A DNA stretch of 64,000 nucleotides, from IMG/VR virus record IMGVR_UViG_3300017766_003987, positions 32,001-96,000 of that record, one strand, 5' to 3'. Origin of the DNA: a virus. Shown here piece by piece: positions 4,819 through 27,202 of the stretch. A program made the translations under genes and the position numbers. The notes under the pieces were generated by a model. The model was not told where the DNA came from, ran no database searches, and saw only the letters and a program-made list of their open reading frames with translations. The stretch's first letter is position 1; the number at the start of each line of letters is the position of its first letter.

Positions 4819-4875
4819 CGAGGCCACAAAGAGATTTGGGTTCGGAAGGGGTTCCTTCCCAAGTCTCCTCCCGAG

Positions 4876-4911
4876 GGGGTCGCTGAGCAATCGGCGGCCC
4901 CCTTTCCTTTA
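4876..4911 (+). terminator. intrinsic terminator
   Basis: GGGGGTCGCTGA-GCAA-TCGGCGGCCCCC followed by TTTCCTTT. Confidence 0.6.
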
Positions 4912-12132: not shown

Positions 12133-12990
12133 GTGGATGAGAAAACAATCACTGCGCTCGCCGCTAAAGCGGACGCGCGAGTAAAAGCCATGTCGCCCGA
12201 AGATCTGGCCAAACTATGGGAAGAGCAGAAGCAAAGCGGGGTGAAGGGCGAAGCTGGTATAGGCAACGACCGAGATGAAGTAGAAGTTCGGCAGCCGGTG
12301 AGCGAACGAGTTGATAGCAACGGAAGAAAGATTGCTTTCTTCAACGATGGGACGTTTATCAGGGAAGCTGATCAGACTCAACCCGAAAGAGTCGTTCCTG
12401 CGGTAACGCGGCGTCGTGTGGCATCTTCGTTTGAAACGACCATGTCGGACGGTTCTATTCGGCATGGTGACTGGCTTCAGACTTACACGGGCAAGGCATT
12501 CTTCCCGTTCGATCCTCGGCCCGAAGATATCGACATTGAGGATATTGCACATGCCCTCTCCCACCAATGTCGCTATGGCGGGCATACCAGCCGTTTCTAC
12601 TCGGTCGCTGAGCATTGCGTGATCCTCTCAACGAAAGTCGAACCGCAGTATGCCTTGGCGGCACTGATGCACGATTGCGCCGAAGCGTACCTGGTCGACA
12701 TTCCTCGCCCTGTGAAATACTCGCTTGTCGGGTATAAAGAACTCGAAGTTCTGGTCGAAAAAGCAATCGCTGCGAAATTCAATTTGCAGTATCCTTGGCC
12801 TGAACAAGTCATGGCTTTCGATACCCGGATGATCCGCGACGAAGGTAACGAGCTCATGGGCGGCGGGGTCAACGACTGGAACAAATACGGCGAGACGCTC
12901 GACGCTCGCCCGTTTGGGGTGACCCCTATCGTCGCCAAGCAGGCATTCCTGCGCCGCTTTCACGAACTACATCAAGAGGGAGCCATTTAA
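12133..12990 (+). CDS. HD-domain 5'-deoxynucleotidase (YfbR-like) with N-terminal extension
   Basis: DIAHALSHQCRYGGH, YSVAEH, LMHDCAEAYLVDIPRP. Confidence 0.8.
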   Translation: MDEKTITALAAKADARVKAMSPEDLAKLWEEQKQSGVKGEAGIGNDRDEVEVRQPVSERVDSNGRKIAFFNDGTFIREADQTQPERVVPAVTRRRVASSFETTMSDGSIRHGDWLQTYTGKAFFPFDPRPEDIDIEDIAHALSHQCRYGGHTSRFYSVAEHCVILSTKVEPQYALAALMHDCAEAYLVDIPRPVKYSLVGYKELEVLVEKAIAAKFNLQYPWPEQVMAFDTRMIRDEGNELMGGGVNDWNKYGETLDARPFGVTPIVAKQAFLRRFHELHQEGAI

Positions 12991-13559
12991 TGGCCATGTT
13001 GCGCGATTACCCCGTAGGCATCGAACAGGCCACTCGGCTTCTGCTTGACGAGATCGGCGAAGATATTGATCGCCCCGGCTTGCTCGAGACGCCTGAGCGC
13101 GTCGCCAAAGCGTGGGCCGAATGGACTTCCGGTTACGACATGGACCCCAAAGAGGTCATCAAGATCTTCGAAGAGGGCGACTACAATGAGATGGTGATTG
13201 TCAAGAACATTCCCATCTATTCGAAGTGTGAACATCACCTTGCCGATATCTTCGGCACAGCTACAATTGCCTACATTCCGCAGGGTAAGGTTCTCGGCTT
13301 ATCAAAGCTTTCCCGTCTCGCCAACGTCTTCGCTCGCCGCCTCCAGGTTCAGGAACGCATGACAGTGCAGATTGCAGACGCTCTTTTCAAGAGTGACCTG
13401 GACCCGAAAGGCGTTGGCGTTCAGCTGCGTTGCCGACACATGTGCATGGAATCTCGAGGCACCAACCAGCAGGGTCATCATACGGTGACAACTGCATTGC
13501 GTGGTGTTTTGTTTGCCGGCGAACCCCGCGCCGAATTCCTCGCCGCGGTTGGAGGGTAA
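12990..13559 (+). CDS. folE: GTP cyclohydrolase I
   Basis: ETPERVAK, CEHHL, GLSKL, LQVQER, HMCMESRG. Confidence 0.95.
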   Translation: MAMLRDYPVGIEQATRLLLDEIGEDIDRPGLLETPERVAKAWAEWTSGYDMDPKEVIKIFEEGDYNEMVIVKNIPIYSKCEHHLADIFGTATIAYIPQGKVLGLSKLSRLANVFARRLQVQERMTVQIADALFKSDLDPKGVGVQLRCRHMCMESRGTNQQGHHTVTTALRGVLFAGEPRAEFLAAVGG

Positions 13560-13560
13560 A

Positions 13561-13980
13561 ATGAACCTAGCAATTCGCATTCTCGTCATTATGGCGCTTG
13601 GCGCCTGGACCATCTGGCCTGAGCCGTGGGGCTTCGGCATGTTCACGCTCGGCATGATCAGCGTTAACCCCGTAGTAGGCCTGACAATGGCCATCCTGTG
13701 GACGATTGTCGTCTTCACTGTGCTGCCGCTCAAGCTTCGGCACTACAAGCTCGGAACTCAGATCGCACTTGTCGCGATGATACTGGTCATGCACTATCAG
13801 GCATATGCGATGGGTTTCATTTCGCTAGCGAACTACGCGCCTTGGCTGATCTCGTTCGCCATGTCGGGAATTTTCGTTCTGGTGGCCTGGCCTATGATCG
13901 CCAATAGGCTCTGGCAGTGGACCCATTACCAGCGTGCCGTCGATCCGCAGACCGCGGATGTTAACGAGCACTCGCACTGA
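13561..13980 (+). CDS. multi-pass membrane protein
   Basis: About four hydrophobic segments; GGAGG SD. Confidence 0.6.
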   Translation: MNLAIRILVIMALGAWTIWPEPWGFGMFTLGMISVNPVVGLTMAILWTIVVFTVLPLKLRHYKLGTQIALVAMILVMHYQAYAMGFISLANYAPWLISFAMSGIFVLVAWPMIANRLWQWTHYQRAVDPQTADVNEHSH

Positions 13981-14017
13981 TCTGTAAAGATCGAGACGGC
14001 CCCCGGCGCGGAGTGAG

Positions 14018-15202
14018 ATGACGATGAAAGATTTTCTGATTTACGGCAAGCATGACGAAAACACGCTTGCGCAAATGACGACTTGCATGGCGTTTGACGA
14101 CGCTGCGGCAGGCGTACTCTGTGCGGATGGGCATCTTGGTTATGCCCATCCCATCGGGGGTGTGGTCGGTTATACTGACCACATTAGCATTAGCGGTGTT
14201 GGTTTTGATATTGCTTGCGGCAACATGGCTGTGCGTCTTGACGCTCGCGCCGATGACATTCGTCCACAGGTAGGGAAAATCTTGGCTGATATCGCAGCTG
14301 TTGTGAGCTTCGGCGTCGGTCGATCCAACGACGAGAAGGTCGATCACGATTTGTTCGATAGCCGGCTCTGGGAAGATGCCGGGGTGCCTGAACTGAAGAC
14401 GATGGCTCGCAATCAGCTTGGGACCGTCGGATCAGGAAACCATTACGTCGATCTTTTCGAAGATGATGCAGGGTTTGTCTGGATTGGCAACCATTTCGGA
14501 TCGCGTGGCCTCGGACATAAAATCACGACCAAGTACCTGGAGCTTGCTGGGGCCAAAGACGGGATGCTCGTTCCTCCTGCGTTGGTTCCGGCAGACGACG
14601 ATCTCGGACGCGGCTATATGGCGGGCGTTGAGCTGGGAGGTCTGTATGCTTACGCTGGTCGTGAGTGGGTGATTGAGCGCGTGCGCAAGATCATCGGCGG
14701 CAACGTCACGTTCTCGGTTCACAATCACCATAACTGGTGTTGGCGTGAAACCCATAACGGGATTGACATGTGGGTTGTTCGAAAGGGTGCTACGCCGGCA
14801 TTCCCCGGGCAATACGGCTTCGTCGGCGGATCGATGGGCGATGACGCGGTGATCCTTCGCGGTATTGATAGTCCGCTTTCGAAAGCTTCGCTCTATTCCA
14901 CGGTTCACGGGGCGGGGCGTATCATGTCACGCACCGAGGCACGCGGTCGTTTCGTTCGAGATCCTATTACCAAAAAGAAAGAGCGTCAACCCGGTCGAGT
15001 TCGTCATGACGAATGGCAGAACTGGATACGTGACAAGGGCGTTACGTTGATTGGAGCGGACTTGGACGAGGCGCCCCAGGCATATCGTCGTCTTCCTGAG
15101 GTCCTTGCAGCTCATGCCGGCACGGTAGAGATCATGCATACTTTGCATCCGTTTGGGGTCATCATGGCCGGCGCAAACGAATTCGATCCTTACAAAGATT
15201 AA
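14018..15202 (+). CDS. rtcB: RtcB-family RNA ligase
   Basis: DGHLGY, GVGFDIACG, GTVGSGNHY, HFGSRG, HNHHN, HGAGR, DEAPQAY. Confidence 0.92.
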   Translation: MTMKDFLIYGKHDENTLAQMTTCMAFDDAAAGVLCADGHLGYAHPIGGVVGYTDHISISGVGFDIACGNMAVRLDARADDIRPQVGKILADIAAVVSFGVGRSNDEKVDHDLFDSRLWEDAGVPELKTMARNQLGTVGSGNHYVDLFEDDAGFVWIGNHFGSRGLGHKITTKYLELAGAKDGMLVPPALVPADDDLGRGYMAGVELGGLYAYAGREWVIERVRKIIGGNVTFSVHNHHNWCWRETHNGIDMWVVRKGATPAFPGQYGFVGGSMGDDAVILRGIDSPLSKASLYSTVHGAGRIMSRTEARGRFVRDPITKKKERQPGRVRHDEWQNWIRDKGVTLIGADLDEAPQAYRRLPEVLAAHAGTVEIMHTLHPFGVIMAGANEFDPYKD

Positions 15203-22184: not shown

Positions 22185-22430
22185 ATGCCTAAGATCCTTT
22201 TGCGCAATCAAGAGAATCGATACTTCATCACTGAAGTTGAATTCTGGCCCGCCGCGTGGAGTAGGGAAACCCCTCCCGTCGTGCGGGCCAATGTCTTTGG
22301 TAGGGTAGAATCCGTTTATTATCTTCGGACGGATGATTGGCTCGACGGAAAGCGTCTTTATGTTGAGGCGCCTGAACTAGGGGTAGCAATCCCTTACGAG
22401 TTGACAACCAAAGAAAGTCACGCAAAATGA
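22185..22430 (+). CDS. hypothetical protein
   Basis: GAGGA SD. Confidence 0.5.
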   Translation: MPKILLRNQENRYFITEVEFWPAAWSRETPPVVRANVFGRVESVYYLRTDDWLDGKRLYVEAPELGVAIPYELTTKESHAK

Positions 22431-22888
22431 AGCAGATCAACACTCTGTCCCGAGAAGATCTCGCAAGGCTCAAAGACGAAGTCATGTTCGCAGGTCCGAA
22501 TAATTCAATCGACCTGTATCAGTCCGTTGCGACGAAGTCGGCAATATACCCCGGGCATGGAACGCCGTTTGGGCTCGCCTATGTCGCCCTCAAGGGGGCT
22601 GGTGAAGCCGGGGAATTCGCCGAGCACGTCGGCAAGGCAATGCGTGACGATGATCTGGTCACAATCGGAACAGAACGGGGCGACGGTTTGCACGACGTTT
22701 TGTTCCAGGAGATTACTCCCGAGCGCAAAGCTCTATTGATCAAGGAAATTGGCGATCAGCTTTGGTATCTAGCCGCCAAGTGCAACGAGCTTGGGGTTCT
22801 GCTCAGCGACGTAGCAGTCATCAATATCGAAAAGTTACTCGACAGAACCGAACGAAACGCCTTGCAAGGCTCAGGCGATACGCGTTAA
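22427..22888 (+). CDS. MazG-like NTP pyrophosphohydrolase
   Basis: GEAGEFAE, KEIGDQLWY, NIEKLLDR..R..LQGSGDTR. Confidence 0.85.
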   Translation: MKQINTLSREDLARLKDEVMFAGPNNSIDLYQSVATKSAIYPGHGTPFGLAYVALKGAGEAGEFAEHVGKAMRDDDLVTIGTERGDGLHDVLFQEITPERKALLIKEIGDQLWYLAAKCNELGVLLSDVAVINIEKLLDRTERNALQGSGDTR

Positions 22889-23031
22889 TGTAATGTCGTT
22901 CTGAGCAAGGGTCTTTCGTTTCGACTCGGTTGTGTTGTGCTTTGCTTAGCGTTGATGGGTATTTCCGCGATCAACTCCAGTCCCGTCGCCGGATCAATTC
23001 CCCCGAATGTTCGGCGACGGGATAACTTAAA

Positions 23032-23090
23032 GTGTCACTGAAGAGTCCTGATGGGACGAAATCACAAGGGAGAGCTTTGTGATCTGGCAC
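23032..23090 (+). ncRNA. type I hammerhead ribozyme
   Basis: Stem I GTGTCA/TGGCAC, core CTGAAGA (23038-44), stem II GTCC/GGAC, GAAA (23058-61), stem III ATCACAAGG/CTTTGTGAT, AUC cleavage triplet ending at C23084. Confidence 0.88.
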
Positions 23091-23296
23091 GTACAAGAGG
23101 AACGTTTAAGAGCGATATGGGCTTGACCGGCAATAGCTTACCGGTGACAACATAATGACCCAAAAGGATCTTGAGTAGGTATCGCTAGCCTCATTTGGGA
23201 GCTGATGATCCGGCTTAACAGCTCGATTTGACTTCTCAGGCGGGATGGTTGCAAACGCCCGCAAGTCCTCACTCCTATCTTCCACAGGAAGTTATC

Positions 23297-23530
23297 ATGG
23301 CTATCAAGCAAGCGCCTCCGTCTGCACTCATCGGGGTTGAAGCGGTCAACGCTGAAACGGGGCGAGAAGTGACTCCTTTGACTTTGACATTCACGTTACG
23401 ACAGTGGCGTCTGCTTGCGGTTGCGGCAGGCCGCGTTAGCGCGTCAGTTTTCATCGAATCCAAAGATGCGGCTGAAGTCAAGGCAATCGCCAAGCTGATT
23501 GCTGAACAAACCGGCAAAGAACCCGCATGA
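23297..23530 (+). CDS. hypothetical protein
   Basis: AGGA SD before MAIKQAPP. Confidence 0.55.
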   Translation: MAIKQAPPSALIGVEAVNAETGREVTPLTLTFTLRQWRLLAVAAGRVSASVFIESKDAAEVKAIAKLIAEQTGKEPA

Positions 23531-23935: not shown

Positions 23936-24913
23936 TTGATGCTTGACGCACTTCGTTTCGTTGCATCCGCCGTTGCGAAGAAAGACTACGTCCCAGCTCT
24001 CACACACTACAAGATCACTAACGGTAAGGTGATGGGCTTTAATGGGATCATCGCCCTGTCATCTGAGATTGACGTTGATCTGGAGGTGATGCCGAGCGCA
24101 GCGAAATTCCTCGCCGCAATCAAGGCGTGCCCTGACACCATTGCGCTCAACGTAACCCCATCTGGGAAGCTCGCTGTCAAGTCCGGCAAATTTAAATCGT
24201 TCGTTGATTGCCTTCCCATGGACACAGCGGTCACTTTCCTTGAACCTGAAGGCGAGGAAGTTGACTTGGGACCGAGCTTTCTCAAGGGCATCAAGCTGCT
24301 TGAGCCTGCGATGGGCATCGACGCATCCCGCCAATGGGCAATGGGGATTAAGCTTCGCGGCAAGTCAATGTTCGCGACTAACAACATCATGTTAGTCGAA
24401 TACTATCACGGGACGCACATTCCAATGGACGTGGTGATACCTGACCTGGCCATTAGGGAGTTGGTTCGTATCAACGAAGTTCCTACGCGTGTCCAAGTTT
24501 CTGAAAAGTCGATCTCATTCTGGTTCGGTGAGAAGCGTTGGTTGCGCACGAACCTGCTTGAAGGTGGAAAGTGGCCGACGGACAAACTCACGCAGATTCT
24601 GTCAGCGTCAACCGGTGAGCAGGTGCCTTTCCCTGATGGGTTCGCAGAGAACCTTGAAATTATCAAACCGTTCTTGGGCGATAACGGCACTATCTTTCTT
24701 ACGCCTAAGGCGATGATGACCTCTCAGTACGACGGCGAGGGAACGACGCTCGAGATTGAAATGCCGCAGATCACCGAGATGCAGGCATATCATCATAAAC
24801 AGCTTGTGCTGCTGGCCGAGATGGCAGCGACTATCGATTGGACAGGCTATCCGCGTCCGTGCATGTTTCAAGGGAAGATGCTTCGCGGCGCACTTGTTGG
24901 ACAGAGGGTGTAA
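23936..24913 (+). CDS. DNA polymerase sliding clamp (Pol III beta)-like protein
   Basis: ALRFVASAVAKKD..PAL N-terminus and FATNNIMLVE; about 325 aa; adjacent to the polymerase. Confidence 0.7.
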   Translation: MMLDALRFVASAVAKKDYVPALTHYKITNGKVMGFNGIIALSSEIDVDLEVMPSAAKFLAAIKACPDTIALNVTPSGKLAVKSGKFKSFVDCLPMDTAVTFLEPEGEEVDLGPSFLKGIKLLEPAMGIDASRQWAMGIKLRGKSMFATNNIMLVEYYHGTHIPMDVVIPDLAIRELVRINEVPTRVQVSEKSISFWFGEKRWLRTNLLEGGKWPTDKLTQILSASTGEQVPFPDGFAENLEIIKPFLGDNGTIFLTPKAMMTSQYDGEGTTLEIEMPQITEMQAYHHKQLVLLAEMAATIDWTGYPRPCMFQGKMLRGALVGQRV

Positions 24914-27202
24914 ATGTCACGTTGGGACCTGACAGGTATCTTCTGGGACGACTATGTCGAGCCCCGTGCGCCGGCGATAAAGGAAAAGCGTCTGCCGCCT
25001 GACCCCGTCTGGCTCAAAGACGACTATTTGCCCGGGCTCGCCGAAGCACTTTCGTATCAGTTCAATCATATGTCTGATGCTGAAATTGTGACAGAAGCCA
25101 AAGAGAAGAATCGTCTCGTTTGGGATACGGAAGAATATCCGAACTATTCCTTGATCGGTTTCAAGTCGGTCAAGAGTGGCAAGCATATCGTAATGGAGGC
25201 TAACGACGGGCAGCCATTCAACGAAATTGATCGAGCCAAGCTTCAGTGGATTCTAAGGAACTACTGCGTTGTCGGTTTCAATGACGAAGCATTCGATATC
25301 CCGGTCACAATGTACGCGCTGAACGGGGCAACGACGAACCAGCTTTCAGACGCAGCCCAAGATATCATTGCCGGCGGACCTTTGTTTCAGGGTTTGACGC
25401 CGCGTGACTTCTATGCCAAATACCGGATCAGCGCCTTTCCAGTCGATCATATCGATCTGATCCAACTAACGCCCCTCGGTCCGGGCTTGAAAGTTTGCGC
25501 CGGTCGTATGCACTCGAAATGGATGGCTGATCTACCGTTCATTCCAGGCAAGCTACTCACTGCTGACCAAAAGTTAATCCTTCGCAGGTATTGGGCGAAC
25601 GACTTGGATAACACCGAGTTGCTGTTGGGCAAGCATAAGGTCGCACTCGAGCTGCGTGAACTGCTGACTAAGGATTACGGCGTTGACGTTCGATCCAAGT
25701 CTGATCCGCAAATCGCAGAGGCAGTGCTTCGATCCGAAGTCAAGAAGTTAACAGGCCGCAAGCGCATTGACAAAGCGGTCATTCGCGCCGGCGAGTATTT
25801 CTATTTCGTTCCGCCTGCATATACTGCCTACAAGTCGGAAACAATGAAATGGGTACTTGACTTCATCAAACGGCAGAAGTTCTATATTGATGAAGGCGGT
25901 TCGCCCGTCATGCCAATCGAGCTGGAAGGACTTGATATTGAAATCGCTGGTAACATCTACCGTATGGGTATCGGCGGACTTCACTCACAAGAAAAGTGTT
26001 CAATCCACCACAGTGATGATGACTTCGAGCTTTCGGACAACGACGTTACTTCGTACTATCCGAACCTCATCATCCAGCAGAACATGTACCCGCCTCACGT
26101 GGGACCCGCTTTCCTCACTTCTTTTAGCGGCATCGTAACTCGACGCATAACGGCCAAGCGCGCTGGCGACAAGGGGACCGCGGAAACGCTGAAGATTGTC
26201 GCTAACGGCACGTTCGGTAAGACCGGCGAGCGAGGCGGGCATTCGGTCGTCTATTACCCTGAGATGATGATCCAGACGACGGTGAGCGGGCAACTGTCCC
26301 TACTCATGCTGATCGAGATGCTCGAGCTGGTCAACATTCATGTAGTGAGTGCGAATACCGACGGTATCATGATCAAGTGCCCCAGGCACCTATTGGACGT
26401 CAAAGCGCAGATCATTGCCGATTGGCAGACTGCAACGGGACTCGAGCTCGAAAGCAAAGGATACAAAGCCGTCTACTCGCGTGACGTTAACAACTACATC
26501 GCTTTGCTCGAGAAGCCGGACACGAAAGAAACCGGCCCTTGGCAGTATGCTAAGGCGGTCGGTGCGTATCGCAAAACGATTGACGTGTATCCACTCAAGT
26601 GGAACCCTACGTGCGAAATCTGCAACGAAGCGGTCATTATGTATCTCGCAAAGGGCGTTCCCTTGATCGAGACCATTCGAGCTTGCGACGATGTACGCAA
26701 GCTGATAGAAGTGCGCCGTGTGAGCGGTGGGGCATGCAAGGGCGGCGAGTATTTGGGCAAGGTCATTCGCTGGTATTACGGCGTTGACGTTAAAGACGAG
26801 ATCATCAACGCGAAGAACGGTAATCACATTCCGCGGTCTAAAGGCGCTGTCCCCTGCATGACCTTGCCGGATGACATTCCTGTGGACGTAGATTGGGACT
26901 ACTATGTCACGCGCGCTCAAAAGATGATCGATGACTTCTATCCGAAAGTCAAGGTTGCCAAAGTCAAGGCGAATGCTGCGCCAATCGTCCCGGCCACTCC
27001 CGAGCAGGTCGAATGGCTCAAGCAGCATGATTGGGAACCTCTTTGGGATGACAACAATTGGATCAAAGTCGAATGGCGTGCAAACCCCAGGATCGACATT
27101 GACAAAGCTGGCGTACCTTTCCATGTCGCGTGGGCGAGCGCAACTAACGGCAAAAATGTTCTTGGTAAAGTTGAAGACGAAGAAGAGGCGACCACAGAAT
27201 GA
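24914..27202 (+). CDS. family B DNA polymerase with 3'-5' exonuclease
   Basis: Exo WDTE and GFNDEAFD; pol motifs DVTSYYPN, KIVANGTFGK, SANTDG, RDVNNY. Confidence 0.88.
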   Translation: MSRWDLTGIFWDDYVEPRAPAIKEKRLPPDPVWLKDDYLPGLAEALSYQFNHMSDAEIVTEAKEKNRLVWDTEEYPNYSLIGFKSVKSGKHIVMEANDGQPFNEIDRAKLQWILRNYCVVGFNDEAFDIPVTMYALNGATTNQLSDAAQDIIAGGPLFQGLTPRDFYAKYRISAFPVDHIDLIQLTPLGPGLKVCAGRMHSKWMADLPFIPGKLLTADQKLILRRYWANDLDNTELLLGKHKVALELRELLTKDYGVDVRSKSDPQIAEAVLRSEVKKLTGRKRIDKAVIRAGEYFYFVPPAYTAYKSETMKWVLDFIKRQKFYIDEGGSPVMPIELEGLDIEIAGNIYRMGIGGLHSQEKCSIHHSDDDFELSDNDVTSYYPNLIIQQNMYPPHVGPAFLTSFSGIVTRRITAKRAGDKGTAETLKIVANGTFGKTGERGGHSVVYYPEMMIQTTVSGQLSLLMLIEMLELVNIHVVSANTDGIMIKCPRHLLDVKAQIIADWQTATGLELESKGYKAVYSRDVNNYIALLEKPDTKETGPWQYAKAVGAYRKTIDVYPLKWNPTCEICNEAVIMYLAKGVPLIETIRACDDVRKLIEVRRVSGGACKGGEYLGKVIRWYYGVDVKDEIINAKNGNHIPRSKGAVPCMTLPDDIPVDVDWDYYVTRAQKMIDDFYPKVKVAKVKANAAPIVPATPEQVEWLKQHDWEPLWDDNNWIKVEWRANPRIDIDKAGVPFHVAWASATNGKNVLGKVEDEEEATTE

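Follow-up and report, generated by a model that had tools for sequence, protein, structure and literature searches.

A type I hammerhead ribozyme motif between mazG and the replication genes of a complete 107-kb phage genome

Introduction

The IMG/VR virus record IMGVR_UViG_3300017766_003987 is a complete genome of 107,266 bp. Downstream of its mazG gene lies an intergenic gap of 408 nt (22889-23296) that is unusually long for a tightly packed genome, and within the gap is a 59-nt segment on the + strand (23032-23090) that resembles a hammerhead ribozyme. This raises the question of whether the segment is a genuine self-cleaving RNA and, if it is, what its cleavage would do to the phage transcript. 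Throughout, “the window” is the whole stretch of 64,000 nt that was analysed (positions 32001-96000 of the record), and all coordinates refer to it unless a locus name precedes them.

Hammerheads have been known from phage intergenic regions since 2011. Those of phages and prophages, including Rhizobiales ones, cleave in vitro and in vivo, and the role proposed for them is to cut the long transcripts of phages into shorter mRNAs (Perreault et al., 2011; PMC3088659). Their biological role has been described as an open question (PMC6155905).

Core, stems and cleavage site

By motif, 23032-23090 is a genuine type I hammerhead self-cleaving ribozyme (Table 1), and it very probably cleaves. All 13 of the 13 invariant core positions can be read from the sequence: the hammerhead core comprises C3-A9, G12-A14, A15.1, U16.1 (U23083) and H17 (C23084). 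The three stems are uninterrupted and without bulges, with 6 bp in stem I, 4-5 bp in stem II and 9 bp in stem III. Stem I is open and stems II and III are closed by loops, which is the type I topology, as found in the sequence, in the predicted folds and with a structural descriptor. The pairs adjacent to the core are standard, namely U23085-A23037 (1.1-2.1), G23045-C23057 (10.1-11.1) and A23061-U23083 (15.1-16.1).

Stem II is built from G23045-C23057, one U-A and two C-G pairs, and a possible fifth pair (U23049.G23053) would reduce its loop to GAU. In stem III, A23061-U23083 is followed by eight further pairs, of which the last is G23069-C23075, and the ensemble pair probability is ~0.97 in every context tested. 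Both the minimum free energy (MFE) and the centroid folds of 96-nt and 415-nt contexts are the hammerhead three-way junction. The folding-energy z-scores of the hammerhead contexts are unremarkable (-1.2).

Perreault et al. (2011; PMC3088659) accepted candidates with the core, three helices, standard core-adjacent pairs and no multiple mispairs, and the segment passes all of these rules. A preliminary description of this DNA had called it a complete type I hammerhead with this core and these three stems, which sequence, folds, descriptor and the Rfam model RF00163 confirm. It had also placed cleavage after AUC at C23084, and this is right, as the site follows from the core numbering. Hammerhead cleavage yields a 2′,3′-cyclic phosphate and a 5′-OH, which would lie here on C23084 and U23085, respectively.

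Table 1. Features of the ribozyme, its flanks and the genes discussed (window coordinates)
Feature	Position	Strand	Basis or remark
RtcB RNA ligase gene	14018-15202	+	Pfam PF01139, 205.8 bits; no shown tie to the ribozyme
MazG-like NTP pyrophosphohydrolase gene (upstream)	22427-22888	+	Pfam PF03819, 28.3 bits, cut-off 22
Structured upstream intergenic part	22889-23031	+	MFE -50.4 versus -38.2 kcal/mol for shuffles
Stem I, 5′ strand (GUGUCA)	23032-23037	+	A23037 is position 2.1; pairs with 23085-23090, one G.U
Stem I, end pairs (6 bp)	G23032-C23090 through A23037-U23085	+	Sequence, folds, descriptor
Catalytic core C3-A9 (CUGAAGA)	23038-23044	+	Fits invariant C3 U4 G5 A6 N7 G8 A9
Stem II hairpin (GUCC/GGAC, loop UGAUG)	23045-23057	+	G10.1-C11.1 closes the core
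Core G12 A13 A14 and A15.1 (GAAA)	23058-23061	+	Sequence, RF00163 alignment
Stem III hairpin (9 bp including A15.1-U16.1, loop GAGAG)	23061-23083	+	Sequence, fold, descriptor
Predicted scissile bond, C17 (23084)/U1.1 (23085)	23084-23085	+	From core numbering
Stem I, 3′ strand (UGGCAC)	23085-23090	+	Sequence, fold, descriptor
Competitor segment	23142-23149	+	8-bp helix with 23033-23040 (stem I 5′ strand and C3-G5)
First downstream gene (77 aa)	23297-23530	+	ORF; no Pfam or PHROGs family
Processivity factor	23936-24913	+	phrog_947, 188.9 bits
DNA polymerase	24914-27202	+	phrog_1252, 621.5 bits

Support from covariance models and shuffled sequences

The Rfam model RF00163 (Hammerhead_1), which has the topology and core of the candidate, aligns over its full length (1-45) to exactly 23032-23090 with 25.4 bits (E = 5e-4 in a region-limited scan and 3e-5 for the whole 107-kb genome). 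This is its sole match in the whole 107,266-bp record. The search with the Rfam hammerhead models that the preliminary description had proposed thus gave an exact full-length match, at a score below the gathering threshold of 34 bits. For this reason the hammerhead is not listed by default whole-window Rfam scans, at the gathering threshold or at E ≤ 1; at the gathering threshold the window yields tRNAs only. RF00163 derives mainly from animal satellite-DNA type I hammerheads, for example those of Schistosoma and newt. Nine matches to phage hammerheads in five phage records scored 12.8-36.7 bits on this model, and one of the nine reached 34. Given this range of about 13-37 bits, the 25.4 bits of the candidate are typical of the phage class, and the sub-threshold score reflects a model poorly suited to phage copies rather than a defect of this one.

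The type I structural descriptor found one site in the window, which is the candidate. With minimum stems of 5, 3 and 3 bp it gave 2 matches in 1,500 dinucleotide shuffles, and the real stems are 6, 5 and 9 bp. We also used a covariance model (R1) built from 46 phage type I hammerheads, with the candidate left out. R1 scores the candidate at 49.4 bits over its full length (E about 3e-12), part of this score being there by construction because the pattern used to fetch the class was that of the candidate's own core and stem II. R1 had no second match in the genome and none in 18 loci from relatives, and no other ribozyme was found in the complete 107-kb genome with Rfam, RF00163 or R1. The covariation counts from alignment A2 rest on rows that were pre-selected for pairing and are not independent proof. 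Although the Rfam score is sub-threshold and permissive E-values also give weak RF00163 matches in control genomes, a chance match without any evolutionary relation to hammerheads is barely credible given the rarity of shuffled matches at far weaker stem criteria, the R1 score and a 24-nt signature that, in the collections searched, always lies within a complete hammerhead (see below).

Genomic context and relatives

The hammerhead is on the coding strand, between co-oriented phage genes. Genes for an AAA_28 protein and MazG are located upstream on the + strand, and downstream come the 77-aa ORF, an 86-aa ORF and the genes for the processivity factor and the DNA polymerase, all on the + strand. 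Pfam and PHROGs matches therefore bear out the earlier placement of the element between mazG and the clamp and polymerase genes. We found no credible ORF in the gap (22889-23296). At the TAA directly 5′ of stem I, only 31-34-aa frames with TTG or GTG starts terminate, and a small ORF there was rejected as not credible.

None of the INPHARED phages matched the intergenic region. DNA matches in that collection were to the mazG and DNA-polymerase genes only, from Rhizobium phages at ~71-76% identity, and a Rhizobiales-type host background is likely for this phage. The only closer relative found, L149, was identified with the processivity factor as anchor (63% amino acid identity there); it has different upstream genes, no gap and no hammerhead. 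Among 27 MazG-anchored viral loci, of which ten were scanned with Rfam and seventeen with R1, no hammerhead was located nearby. Its position is thus not conserved in L149 or at the MazG-anchored loci. A tblastn search of the window ORFs of at least 100 aa against hammerhead-bearing loci detected no relative of the phage. In the collections searched there was neither an orthologue of the hammerhead nor a close relative of the phage, so this copy comes with no lineage-specific conservation or covariation of its own.

One viral locus (L063:836-1215, - strand) has a type I hammerhead ~110 nt upstream of a MazG homologue that shares 36% amino acid identity with the MazG of the candidate phage. As this hammerhead is on the other side of the mazG family gene, the resemblance is probably a coincidence. 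The record that holds this locus has 4 RF00163 matches in 17 kb, and the genome studied here has a single copy.

Two further RNA matches in the window were recorded. At 4834-4910 (+) there is a sub-threshold match to the Bradyrhizobiaceae sRNA BjrC68 (RF02353; 31 versus 39 bits, E = 4.5e-4), which hints at a Rhizobiales host or at a captured host sRNA. In the tRNA cluster, 29605-29709 (+) matches tRNA-Sec weakly (28.6 versus 47 bits) and may be a tRNA with a long variable arm, or an otherwise unusual tRNA, that the tRNA model missed.

The phage hammerhead class and other known systems

The core and stem II signature retrieved at least 120 viral-contig stretches. Type I layout was found in 103 of the 132 viral-contig matches listed, and the class statistics are based on 83 unique type I examples among them (IMG/VR viral contigs). 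We compared features that are outside the retrieval pattern. Among the matches listed, stem I has 6 bp in 50 of the 83 examples, 72 have C as H17, 41 have U-A as the 1.1-2.1 pair and in 48 stem I is directly preceded by an A; the candidate agrees in all four. Its geometry (6-bp stem I, 4-5-bp stem II and 5-nt loop) is also the class mode. Like the phage class as a whole (L029-L169), it combines the same core and stem II and a 6-bp open stem I with a UC cleavage dinucleotide, the preceding A and a hairpin-capped stem III. It differs in its longer stem III (9 bp versus a class mode of 5), in having A at N7, which is rare (3 of 83 among the matches listed), and in having no abutting stop codon, as it begins 143 nt 3′ of the mazG stop. 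The G at +1, after stem I, is a minority state in the class. The nearest class examples, L133 and L159, resemble the candidate in loop II (UGAUG) and in having G at +1.

Most class members are co-oriented with their neighbouring genes, as is the candidate, and 44 of 62 members (among the matches listed) are outside called ORFs, compared with ~22% of random positions. The viral contigs searched had four exact matches to the 24-nt signature of core, stem II and UGAUG loop, and the metagenome contigs had 15. Each of these 19 matches is a complete type I hammerhead; stem I has 6 bp in 17, and at least 8 unrelated, compensating sequences of stems I and III occur among them. When the stem I 3′ strand of the candidate was part of the exact pattern, viral contigs gave no match. 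Given the lack of sequence homology in stems I and III, the candidate is not an orthologue of any class copy retrieved.

No covarying contact between stem I and loop II was seen. Such a tertiary contact is needed for fast hammerhead cleavage at physiological Mg2+, and in the Schistosoma ribozyme stem I is extended and has an internal loop with which loop II docks. In contrast to the Schistosoma ribozyme, neither the candidate nor the phage class has a supported stem I extension. One possible extension, between 23026-31 and 23105-10, was rejected because it occurs in ~10% of shuffles and is thus not above chance, and extensions are not enriched in the phage class (4.61 versus 4.64).

Several observations concern the class itself. 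In 30 of the 83 type I examples among the matches listed, the last base of a stop codon is either the one before stem I or the first of stem I; thus, in about a third of the class, the ribozyme starts where the upstream gene ends. Type I copies are clustered in several phage contigs, for example three copies within 1.1 kb at L037. The matches without type I layout resemble type III hammerheads with stem I loops of the UGUGU or UGAGUG type (L029, L040, L043, L052, L062, L072, L085, L095 and others), and at these loci a start codon is located ~25-40 nt downstream of the hammerhead.

The closest published counterparts are those of Perreault et al. (2011; PMC3088659), which include the clusters of Agrobacterium tumefaciens and Azorhizobium caulinodans and the hammerheads of phages PaP3 and Bcep176. 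As in the candidate, these have the consensus core and short stems and are located between co-oriented phage genes, in a Rhizobiales-type host background that is likely for the candidate as well. Their copies often form clusters of two to four that flank single genes, whereas the candidate occurs once, midway through a 408-nt gap; theirs cleave, and cleavage of the candidate is predicted. RAGATH-1 (RF03152) shares with the candidate the type I order of elements and a hairpin that lies a few nucleotides 5′ of stem I, but its stem II is a single modelled pair, whereas the candidate has a normal stem II of 4-5 bp. Membership in RAGATH-1 was rejected, as the score is 27 versus 56.3 bits and the upstream hairpin of the model does not align to the real hairpin.

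The HHphage hammerhead of the haloviruses HF1 and HF2 is, like the candidate, a virus hammerhead upstream of replication genes in a genome that encodes RtcB, and in HF2 a transcript 5′ end was mapped within three nucleotides of the cleavage site (PMC3088659). It differs in being a variant hammerhead, analogous to HHmeta, which needs very high Mg2+ in vitro, in its location 13 nt from a start codon, and in belonging to an archaeal virus. No link between the hammerhead and RtcB has been shown in HF1/HF2. In synthetic insulators of the RiboJ type, a hammerhead in the 5′ leader frees the transcript of its upstream RNA context, with a 5′-OH as the new end. This is a working analogy only, as RiboJ is an engineered part and implies no natural regulatory role for the candidate.

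Proposed role and alternative readings

The best-supported and most likely role of the element is the cutting of polycistronic mRNA. As a whole, the explanation that a type I hammerhead of the phage class cuts the rightward polycistronic RNA and uncouples two gene blocks is, in our judgement, probable. The hammerhead would be transcribed within the rightward polycistronic RNA. Once its 59 nt have emerged, the three-way junction would fold and the RNA would cut itself between C23084 and U23085, separating the message for mazG and nucleotide metabolism from that of the replication module, with its two small ORFs and the genes for the processivity factor and the DNA polymerase. The upstream product would have a terminal 2′,3′-cyclic phosphate behind a very stable hairpin stack and the folded ribozyme, and we propose that such a structured cyclic-phosphate 3′ end should hinder 3′ exonucleases. 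The downstream product would begin with a 5′-OH, ~212 nt before the next start codon, and should, as a further proposal, be a poor substrate for decay that depends on a 5′-monophosphate. Cleavage would in this way uncouple the gene blocks from each other, in stability as well as in translation. We infer these effects on mRNA stability from established knowledge of bacterial RNA decay.

A different outcome would be a hammerhead that is real by descent and functionally neutral. As a sporadically acquired copy, or one in decay, it could cleave slowly in vivo or fail to cleave, either for want of a functional tertiary contact or through trapping in an alternative fold. Its absence from L149 and from the MazG-anchored relatives fits this, as do its occurrence as a single copy, where many phages carry several, its atypical mid-intergenic position and the minority states at N7 and +1. 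Perreault et al. (PMC3088659) noted that some phage hammerheads may be non-functional or slow. Stem I is moreover the weak element of the fold: its ensemble probability varies with the flanks (~0 to 0.95), and some contexts favour a competing helix. In the MFE structure of 22983-23150 the stem I 5′ strand pairs with the competitor segment (Table 1), and enforcing stem I there costs 4.2 kcal/mol; in an 801-nt context the competing helix and stem I are approximately isoenergetic (0.1 kcal/mol). However, a decaying copy would be expected to have defects in its core or stems, and here the core is without any deviation, the stems are uninterrupted and longer than the class median, and the hammerhead fold is the MFE structure in the native 415-nt context. 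We therefore consider a neutral copy unlikely.

The length of the gap raises the alternative that the main job of the ribozyme is to release a discrete non-coding RNA (22889-23084, or 23085 to ~23270) and not to process mRNA. The upstream 143 nt are significantly more stable in their fold than shuffled sequence (z = -3.5; none of 200 shuffles was equally stable), and after cleavage they would form the 3′ end of the upstream product. This flank is dominated by a long GC-rich hairpin at ~22980-23023, just 5′ of the ribozyme and without a U-tract, and the structured RNA could stabilise the 3′ end or bind a protein. On the 3′ side of the cut, on the other hand, the 212 nt are no more structured than shuffles (z = +0.63), and a structured RNA there was rejected for want of thermodynamic support. 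The region has no Rfam match besides the hammerhead models, neither a promoter-like site nor a + strand terminator was found in the gap, and no homologue or repeat of the region was found, apart from an RBS-like motif that recurs elsewhere in the genome. The earlier suggestion that the ribozyme defines the ends of neighbouring non-coding RNAs is thus weak, and we regard release of such an RNA as the main function as quite improbable.

The helix between 23033-23040 and 23142-23149 may, in the folding models, represent an inactive conformer, or it may be due to chance. There is only a slight probability that it is the off-state of a regulated switch whose cleaved ends might in turn be RtcB substrates. 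If the switch were real, the cleaved share would be set by co-transcriptional folding or by a factor that tips the balance, and together with RtcB it would give reversible control over the coupling of the nucleotide-metabolism and replication messages.

The preliminary description had also raised the possibility that RtcB, whose gene it placed at 14018, re-ligates the cleaved RNA or circularises it. The gene is indeed there (Table 1), RtcB substrates carry the end chemistry that hammerheads produce, and it is on this basis that the two might cooperate, with the ends re-joined so that cleavage is reversed or the released RNA becomes circular. The haloviruses HF1/HF2 likewise combine a hammerhead with RtcB (PMC3088659, PMC7230728). 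However, rtcB is 9 kb from the ribozyme, in another module and beside a GTP cyclohydrolase I gene. As the hammerhead is the only ribozyme found in the 107,266 bp and no repeat of its region was detected there, no RNA segment would have two ribozyme-cut ends of the kind expected for retrozyme- or viroid-like circles, which leaves circularisation unsupported. RtcB was present in only 2 of the 50 hammerhead-bearing viral records listed, both of them with some of the largest genomes, and in 1 of the 25 listed that are ≥ 90% complete; these counts cover hammerhead-bearing records only and indicate a low frequency rather than a formal enrichment test. The usual role of phage RNA ligases is tRNA repair, and with at least five tRNA genes in this genome tRNA repair is the ordinary expectation for its RtcB. 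Spliced or circular products of phage hammerheads have been sought and none was detected (Perreault et al., 2011; PMC3088659). In combination, these observations make cooperation between the hammerhead and RtcB highly improbable. Of the earlier interpretation, the structure, cleavage site and position of the ribozyme thus stand, and the idea of RtcB re-ligation finds no support.

The GTP cyclohydrolase I gene (PF01227, 215.9 bits) is just upstream of rtcB, and the two genes span 12990-15202. Phage GTP cyclohydrolase I genes often belong to 7-deazaguanine pathways.

Implications

The candidate is a further member of a large and well-known family of phage intergenic hammerheads. It is a clean, single-copy example at the boundary between nucleotide-metabolism and replication genes in a complete 107-kb genome, and this makes it a convenient construct for testing how cleavage affects expression. 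The side results may outweigh the copy itself in usefulness. Because the Rfam type I model under-scores phage hammerheads, default annotation misses them. The abutment of stop codons and stem I in the class is a second such result, and the frequency of RtcB is a third: in the records listed, RtcB is not the usual companion of phage hammerheads.
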